Shown piece by piece: positions 12,113 to 12,796 of a stretch of 64,000 nucleotides of DNA. The stretch lies in assembly GCF_003334305.1 (NCBI RefSeq), contig NZ_QOWS01000002.1; one strand, given 5' to 3'. This stretch comes from Escherichia coli. GTDB taxonomy: Bacteria; Pseudomonadota; Gammaproteobacteria; Enterobacterales; Enterobacteriaceae. The number at the start of each line of letters is the position of its first letter. The first letter of the stretch is position 1. The notes below the pieces were generated by a model. It was not told the DNA's origin and made no database searches. It saw only the letters and a list, made by a program, of their open reading frames with translations. A program made the translations under genes and the position numbers.

Positions 12113-12796
12113 ATGAGCAGAATTATCACCACCACCGTGTATACACTGAATGAGCTATCCTCCACCGCACAGGAAAAAGCCCGCGACTGGTACCGTCAGC
12201 ATCATGCTGACAGCAACTGGTATGAAAACGTGTATGGGGACTTCAGGGAGGTCTGTGGCATTTTCGGGATTGACCTCCGCCAGCGTGTTATCCGGCTCAG
12301 CAACGGCAGGTTTATGGAAGAGCTGTGCATCTGGTTCAGCGGATTCTGCAGCCAGGGGGACGGAGCCTGTTTTAAAGGACGCTGGCACTGGCAGTCAGCA
12401 ACAGCCAGGAGAGTCGGGGTGTATGCCCCGCAGGACCGTGAGCTTCATCGTATCGCGGATGCCCTGCAGGCGGTGCAGAAGCGTAACTTCTGGCAACTGC
12501 AGGCTGAAATCCACCACCGGGGACGTTACTGCCATCCGTACTGCATGGATATCACCGTCACCCGGAACAGTCCGACTGGTCAGGCTATGACAACCGATGC
12601 GGAAGCCGCAGTCAGCGAAGCCCTGCGCGACCTGGCCTTCTGGTTGTACCGTCAACTGGAAAACGAGTACGACTGGCTGACCTCAGACGCCGCTGTGGAT
12701 GAGGCCCTTCTCATCAACGAATATACCTTCACCGAAGCCGGTCTGCGCGCCGGCTGCCCCGTCATCGTTAAACTATCATTCACCGATTTTCTGTGA
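12113..12796 (+). CDS. Hypothetical protein, 227 aa, Cys/His/Trp-rich, between yeeT and cbeA
   Basis: Clean ORF packed tightly between yeeT and the antitoxin gene; no motif I can assign. Confidence 0.55.
   Translation: MSRIITTTVYTLNELSSTAQEKARDWYRQHHADSNWYENVYGDFREVCGIFGIDLRQRVIRLSNGRFMEELCIWFSGFCSQGDGACFKGRWHWQSATARRVGVYAPQDRELHRIADALQAVQKRNFWQLQAEIHHRGRYCHPYCMDITVTRNSPTGQAMTTDAEAAVSEALRDLAFWLYRQLENEYDWLTSDAAVDEALLINEYTFTEAGLRAGCPVIVKLSFTDFL

Follow-up and report, generated by a model that had tools for sequence, protein, structure and literature searches.

A 64,000-nucleotide stretch of Escherichia coli DNA (contig NZ_QOWS01000002.1 of assembly GCF_003334305.1; the whole stretch is called the window below) carries a 227-amino-acid open reading frame (ORF) between a yeeT-type gene and a cbeA/cbtA-type toxin-antitoxin (TA) gene pair. 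Taking all of the evidence together, we consider it likely that this ORF is a member of the surrounding gene array that was lost from E. coli K-12, that works independently of the TA pair, and that may serve as an early establishment or counter-defense factor. By sequence, motifs, and predicted fold, the encoded protein is a member of the DUF8835/phrog_5162 family, and its length is atypical for that family. The first-pass annotation of the window had described an uncharacterized gene that was inserted between yeeT and cbeA and that might be a third component or a regulator of the TA module. The comparisons below reverse the first of these proposals and argue against the second.

The ORF is a genuine gene rather than a fortuitous reading frame, because identical DNA carries a coding sequence annotation in many RefSeq genomes (WP_001696891.1, "DUF8835 domain-containing"), the exact window protein occurs on 762 contigs of a large protein collection, the family comprises 3543 clusters, and the ratio of nonsynonymous to synonymous substitutions (dN/dS) among E. 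coli alleles is 0.28 to 0.42 in codon alignments. The PHROGs family phrog_5162, listed there with function unknown, matched residues 2 to 211 with an E value of 1.9e-36. The 3543 clusters, formed at 50% identity, were those returned at E<=1e-3 by an exhaustive HMMER search, and 1864 of them remained at E<=1e-10; nearly all were 200 to 220 amino acids long and matched end to end. A profile search of the family recovered 3278 proteins. No match was found in a local Pfam-A library that lacks a DUF8835 model, with either the single sequence or a 113-member alignment, and the NCBIfam search of the ORF protein was likewise negative. A PADLOC match to JetA was at chance level (E value of 0.048) and was rejected, and no other PADLOC match was seen. 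The gene and its family are thus already catalogued in databases, and the gene is a standard, though uncharacterized, member of many such clusters. In several recent RefSeq records, including those behind the stretches L001 and L095, the product name is misspelt "DUF8835 domain-containing pootine."

The unusual length has a simple origin. Codon 215 of the window ORF (positions 12755 to 12757) is TGC, where other alleles, compared as the translations of L097 and L098, have a TGA stop. The window allele has undergone stop loss: it encodes 227 amino acids in place of the canonical 214, which is the length of the other E. coli alleles and of almost all family members, and the loss adds 13 codons that encode the tail PVIVKLSFTDFL. 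Despite this change, the window protein keeps every invariant and near-invariant residue of the family. These residues are shared by phage, alphaproteobacterial, and enteric sequences and consist of E14, L15, G77-F78, Q81-G82-D83-G84-A85, H141, R172, W177, Y179, D192, F206, and G210; the SQGDGA loop and a single histidine, H141, are invariant in the family, and both are present here. The protein had been described as rich in Cys, His, and Trp, and the measured contents of 3.1%, 3.1%, and 3.5%, respectively, are indeed all above typical values. Among those residues, H141 (96%) and W177 (97%) are conserved and C86 is partly so (65%), while most of the others are not. The family is acidic, with a median pI of 4.75, and the window protein is a single-domain alpha/beta protein. 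An AlphaFold2 model of the window protein gave a pLDDT of 94.9, with the 13-residue tail lying outside the folded core. The profile and structure searches that had been suggested at the outset led to a defined family, DUF8835/phrog_5162, with a predicted fold that has no solved relative; the structure search against AFDB50 returned only family members, at TM-scores of 0.9 and above.

A megablast search with the ORF as query covered 5426 complete E. coli genomes. A match was obtained in 3506 of them, and in 1942 it spanned 80% or more of the ORF. K-12 strain MG1655 has yeeT followed directly by cbeA in its CP4-44 element, as stated in the first-pass annotation, with a spacer of 73 nucleotides. 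That spacer keeps the Shine-Dalgarno region of the gene, its ATG, its first 8 codons (MSRIIATT), and its last ∼25 nucleotides. What remains is a 16-codon in-frame ORF, MSRIIATTGPFLADFL*, at L003 positions 2553 to 2603 (MG1655 2077052 to 2077102), with its own Shine-Dalgarno-like sequence and a stop that overlaps the cbeA Shine-Dalgarno; the feature table of that K-12 stretch lists no small ORF there. The K-12-type deletion junction was found in 3495 of the 5426 genomes. A second, 5' deletion leaves the last 152 nucleotides of the gene between the DUF987 and antitoxin genes. This relic is the best match for ∼1560 genomes, is unannotated in RefSeq, and reads as a 51-codon ORF (L002 positions 2999 to 3154) whose ATG shares bases with the yeeT stop codon (TGATG). 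Both relic types end at the same stop beside the cbeA Shine-Dalgarno.

The polarity of the change can be read from these remnants. Because the K-12 spacer retains the Shine-Dalgarno, the start, and the end of the gene, CP4-44 of K-12 and most of E. coli represent a derived state that arose by an in-frame internal deletion, and the islands with the 152-nucleotide relic are the outcome of an independent 5' deletion. The opposite polarity, with the relic spacer ancestral to the full gene, would be very unlikely for the same reason, namely, that the start and end of the ORF are retained in the K-12 spacer. An enterobacterial island with a copy that is only 62% identical has the same order of DUF987, DUF8835, CbeA, CbtA, DUF5983, and DUF4942 genes, and this conserved order, with the relic, points to deletion in K-12 and not to the insertion first supposed. 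Judged from such sequence comparisons, the gene is an original member of the array that lies at the distal end of E. coli islands integrated at tRNA genes and that runs DUF932, ArdB-like, RadC, DUF987, DUF8835, YeeU/CbeA, CbtA, DUF5983, DUF957, and DUF4942. Some such clusters never had the gene, because in the CP4-57 and CP4-6 clusters of K-12 the corresponding gaps, of 37 and 18 nucleotides, contain no relic.

Outside the Enterobacterales, the family lives without CbtA and CbeA. Alphaproteobacterial integrative and conjugative elements (ICEs), plasmids of the same class, and the terminal repeats of large lytic phages account for most of its members, and neither gene lies near them. The neighborhoods of the 80 closest loci on contigs taken from one genome per species (L015 to L094) were surveyed; 79 were alphaproteobacterial and 1 was from Salmonella, and YeeU, CbtA, or DUF987 was nearby only at the Salmonella locus (1/80). 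Linkage of the gene to CbtA/CbeA was seen only within the Enterobacterales. RadC was present at 12 and an ArdB-like gene at 8 of the 80 loci, a 712-amino-acid ParB_N protein at 55, and a ∼1466-amino-acid AAA_34/ResIII helicase lay 3' of the gene at 50. The neighbors on alphaproteobacterial ICEs and plasmids include ParB-like, SSB, RadC, DUF932, ArdB-like, and large helicase genes, and the plasmid copies sit among SSB, DUF932, RadC, ParB, and ArdC-like genes. Directly 5' of DUF8835 at 69 of the 80 loci is a 138-amino-acid protein (MADY[YF]T.FSCL...) whose gene overlaps it by 8 nucleotides (for example, L008 positions 6592 to 7008). This partner had no Pfam, NCBIfam, or PHROG match, and the idea that it is a hidden YeeU was ruled out by an hhalign probability of 0.2%. 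A DUF6915 gene can replace it with the same 8-nucleotide overlap; the overlap is shared by different partners because the upstream gene takes its stop codon from within the conserved DUF8835 start, ATGCC(T)GA(A).

Homologues were also found in 64 phage records, from jumbo phages of Caulobacter and Brevundimonas, 100-kb myoviruses of Acinetobacter, Lana-like phages of Pseudomonas, and the RaK2/Muenster group of Klebsiella. Many of these copies fall within stretches annotated as direct terminal repeats, where the surrounding genes are small and have no assigned function. No CbtA or CbeA was annotated near the phage copies in the two neighborhoods examined, and no phage match came with a genuine one.

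The features of the array are listed in Table 1. The coordinates of the ORF and its gaps, 18 nucleotides from the end of yeeT and 10 nucleotides to the cbeA-type GTG, agree with those first reported. The GAGGA that precedes this GTG by 7 nucleotides overlaps the stop of the ORF, which makes the junction a possible site of translational coupling. No intrinsic terminators were predicted between positions 9874 and 14378, and the sole plus-strand promoter-like match (9977 to 10006) falls within the start of the first gene, DUF932. Cotranscription of the ORF with the TA pair, proposed earlier as probable, is plausible because of these two results, which are pattern scans, and the tight, co-oriented packing also fits it. 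The presumed transcription unit would be the whole DUF932-to-DUF957 array, and so wider than the TA pair. In L001, whose ORF copy is identical to that of the window, an ISEc31 insertion (positions 9068 to 10281) separates the YeeU antitoxin gene from cbtA and so splits the TA pair. Elsewhere in the window, an Rfam match to IS102 RNA was seen at positions 3243 to 3479, just 5' of an Ag43-type autotransporter gene.

Table 1. Positions in the window of the array genes, their sequence signals, and the island boundary
Feature	Position	Strand	Remarks
Terminator-like hairpin 5' of array	9845..9874	+	Pattern scan
DUF932 gene, first gene of array	9923..10741	+	RefSeq; PHROG match
ArdB/KlcA-like anti-restriction gene	10833..11318	+	RefSeq "antirestriction protein"; phrog_10132 (anti-restriction family), 3e-63
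RadC/JAB-domain gene	11319..11810	+	NCBIfam TIGR00608 RadC, 1.7e-43; RefSeq start is the second ATG, 11334
yeeT-type DUF987 gene	11873..12094	+	RefSeq name in L001; phrog_14887 match
Shine-Dalgarno-like TAAGGG	12098..12103	+	9 nt 5' of the ATG of the ORF; read from sequence
DUF8835-family gene	12113..12796	+	ATG start, 227 aa; canonical length, 214 aa
TGA of ORF (12794-12796) overlapping antitoxin GAGGA Shine-Dalgarno (12795-12799)	12794..12799	+	Read from sequence; candidate coupling site
YeeU/CbeA-family type IV antitoxin gene	12807..13187	+	GTG start; aligns with K-12 CbeA
CbtA-family toxin gene	13268..13651	+	Close to K-12 CbtA; RefSeq
DUF5983 (yeeW-type) gene	13648..14136	+	4-nt overlap with cbtA stop; RefSeq
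DUF957 gene	14153..14350	+	RefSeq
Terminator-like hairpin 3' of DUF957	14378..14404	+	Pattern scan
DUF4942 gene, methyltransferase-like	14432..15277	+	RefSeq; phrog_6263 (DNA methyltransferase family), 9.3e-17
tRNA-Ser(GGA), island boundary beside ghrA, serX-type integration site	15427..15514	-	

With respect to function, we tentatively suggest, at somewhat less than an even chance, that DUF8835 is an early establishment or counter-defense protein with a polar pocket for a ligand or target, and that it is a passenger in this island. The protein would function independently of the TA pair and would act in trans soon after the DNA of the element enters the cell, helping establishment or countering defense; the small genes beside the phage copies in the terminal repeats are taken here to be early genes. 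Invariant D83, in the SQGDGA loop, together with H141, E14, Q81, R172, and D192, may form a pocket in which a conserved ligand or a host target is bound or processed. A conserved-ligand pocket would suit these residues better than a fast-evolving protein-protein inhibitor, because they are invariant from phages to E. coli. In the decayed island of the window, the gene is probably a cotranscribed passenger and nothing more. Translation of the stop-loss allele may incidentally affect that of cbeA, which is conceivable because the allele ends inside the cbeA Shine-Dalgarno; the canonical alleles stop 49 nucleotides earlier, so coupling to cbeA would not be the general role of the gene. A bolder form of the proposal strikes us as rather doubtful. 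It would make DUF8835 a new and ancient counter-defense or host-takeover factor, possibly an enzyme with an invariant Asp83/His141 pocket, with a fold that has no solved relative and an antitoxin label that is an artifact; such a factor would be carried alike in the terminal repeats of jumbo phages, on ICEs and plasmids of alphaproteobacteria, and at the ends of E. coli pathogenicity islands.

Several observations weigh against the reading of the gene as a TA-independent establishment or counter-defense factor. The role is proposed from gene neighborhood, the PADLOC and NCBIfam searches yielded nothing, and no biochemical or genetic data on any DUF8835-family member were found in the literature. 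The 80 surveyed loci were the nearest relatives rather than a random draw from the family, and one alphaproteobacterial plasmid copy lies directly 5' of an MbcA/RES pair, which is unrelated. In every enterobacterial arrangement seen, the gene adjoins the TA pair, preceding YeeU in some and lying between YeeU and CbtA, with a 4-nucleotide overlap, in others; such a placement would also be consistent with a functional connection at the locus. Finally, in E. coli few genes of the array are under weaker constraint than this one, which is frequently found as a pseudogene, so that the window copy may do nothing.

The local link is the substance of the idea that DUF8835 is an accessory third component in the Enterobacterales, modulating the toxin, the antitoxin, or the expression of the operon. 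The tight co-oriented packing, with no predicted terminator before the TA pair, speaks for it, as does a YeeU neighbor in every enterobacterial arrangement seen. Salmonella diarizonae and six E. coli genomes have the order DUF987, YeeU, YeeU, DUF8835, CbtA (L058 positions 5260 to 7086; L095 positions 5661 to 7436), in which the YeeU genes are tandem paralogues and DUF8835 overlaps the stop of the second by 4 nucleotides. Wen et al. reported no autoregulation of such type IV pairs by either toxin or antitoxin (PMC5371832), which would leave a place for a missing regulator. They also found, however, that all three K-12 pairs are functional, and all three lack a DUF8835 gene; the upstream yafX-ykfG-ykfH genes did not neutralize the toxin (PMC5371832). 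The family is overwhelmingly found without a CbtA/CbeA pair, its phage copies among them, and in E. coli the gene has been repeatedly deleted or pseudogenized while the pair stays. The ORF protein showed no similarity to YeeU (BLASTP E value of 2.5) and no Pfam match, and neither DNA-binding nor YeeU-like features were found in it. A linker-fused DUF8835-CbeA-CbtA AlphaFold2 model had a pTM of 0.49, with domains not confidently placed and no gain in confidence; the CbeA and CbtA alignments were shallow, making this a weak test. The gene is neither an obligate nor a general third TA component, and we regard even an accessory role confined to the Enterobacterales as distinctly improbable. As a separate matter, the anti-restriction-like and RadC-like genes of CP4-57 (L104 positions 1420 to 2369) are lfgA and lfgB, and LfgB is reported to be an MqsA-cleaving protease (PMC10846083), so that a neighbor of the DUF8835 family has already been linked to host TA systems.

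Two further explanations were weighed. One holds that the main local role of the gene is in cis: translation of the ORF, or of a relic, would end in the cbeA Shine-Dalgarno and hand ribosomes on to the weak GTG start codon of cbeA. The overlap of the TGA with GAGGA is as this would require, and both relics stay translatable to the shared stop, as 16 codons in K-12 and as 51 codons after TGATG elsewhere. Yet the canonical 214-amino-acid alleles end 49 nucleotides 5' of cbeA, so coupling at that point would not be general; an in-frame deletion arises by chance 1 time in 3, and CP4-6 and CP4-57 have no such ORF. We judge it quite unlikely. The other sees the gene in this island as a passenger under decay that no longer has a function, the 227-amino-acid form being a step toward loss. 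The canonical stop has been lost, sister alleles are broken by a frameshift in REL606 and an internal stop in an O25b:H4 strain, the 90% cluster of the window protein includes many truncated members, and two independent deletion types are widespread. The dN/dS is also among the highest in the array, so that purifying selection on the gene, as estimated from the alignments, is weaker than on the DUF932, CbtA, and DUF957 genes. Nevertheless, that ratio is well below 1, the window allele retains all of the invariant and near-invariant residues, the exact sequence persists on 762 contigs, and the added tail is outside the folded core. Complete loss of function is therefore an unlikely account, and an array member that acts independently of the TA pair remains the reading we prefer.

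The names under which the family has been deposited are misleading. Databases have named a DUF8835 protein "antitoxin of the YeeV-YeeU system," a name that seems to reflect the adjacent genes rather than any homology or experiment. We rejected the designation "YeeU-like antitoxin" for gp006 of Klebsiella phage Muenster (L099 positions 3055 to 3666), as its sole basis is a BLAST match to the misnamed E. coli protein. The designation "RNA polymerase binding protein" for the homologue in Acinetobacter phage CP14 (L106 positions 2492 to 3091) was rejected as well; in that record very small ORFs are given names that follow the order of genes in T4, and the label appears to be positional. The antitoxin label has already spread to phage genomes, and correcting it stops false TA counts.

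About one-third of complete E. coli genomes keep a gene that the K-12 reference hides, and because that reference lacks it, K-12-based work has never tested it. The new points are that K-12 is a deletion derivative, that the antitoxin label appears to be an annotation artifact, and that the distribution of the family marks it as a candidate for anti-defense screening. It is a reasonable candidate for such a screen, with thousands of clusters, a confidently predicted fold for which no relative has been solved, invariant polar residues, and a place in both phage terminal repeats and ICE arrays. As for the specific proposal that the gene adds a third component to CbtA/CbeA, the evidence points away from it.

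The known systems with which the gene can be compared differ in how far they resemble it. DUF8835/phrog_5162 proteins agree with the window protein in a full-length match, the SQGDGA loop, the invariant histidine, and the predicted fold, and differ from it in length, 214 versus 227 amino acids, through the stop loss. The YeeU/CbeA antitoxins (PF06154) share an adjacent, co-oriented gene and the antitoxin name in databases, but there is no sequence similarity, and size and predicted secondary structure differ. In three-component TA systems, such as those with a SecB-like chaperone (TAC) or PaaR-PaaA-ParE, control depends on the third gene, which accompanies the pair across taxa. The window likewise has a third small gene beside a toxin and an antitoxin in what may be one operon, but the co-occurrence of DUF8835 fails outside the Enterobacterales and the pair works without it. 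The pre-early genes of T5 exemplify the early genes that large lytic phages carry in their terminal repeats; phage DUF8835 homologues also occur in direct terminal repeats among small genes, but T5 pre-early proteins are not known to be related to them in sequence. A further parallel in setting is with the genes of leading regions and anti-defense islands of conjugative elements, such as ArdA, KlcA/ArdB, and PsiB. DUF8835 has no homology to a known anti-defense protein and no PADLOC match, and the likeness is one of context only. Samuel et al. (2024) described anti-defense, methyltransferase, SSB, and TA genes that cluster with many uncharacterized families, some of them shared with phages (PMC11541004). 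DUF8835 genes similarly have anti-restriction, SSB, ParB-like, methyltransferase-like, and TA neighbors on mobile elements, are shared between conjugative elements and phages, and are small, encode acidic proteins, and lie in tightly packed one-strand arrays. In our analysis, the settings of the gene in the window, in the alphaproteobacteria, and in phages match the pattern expected of an anti-defense island or leading region.
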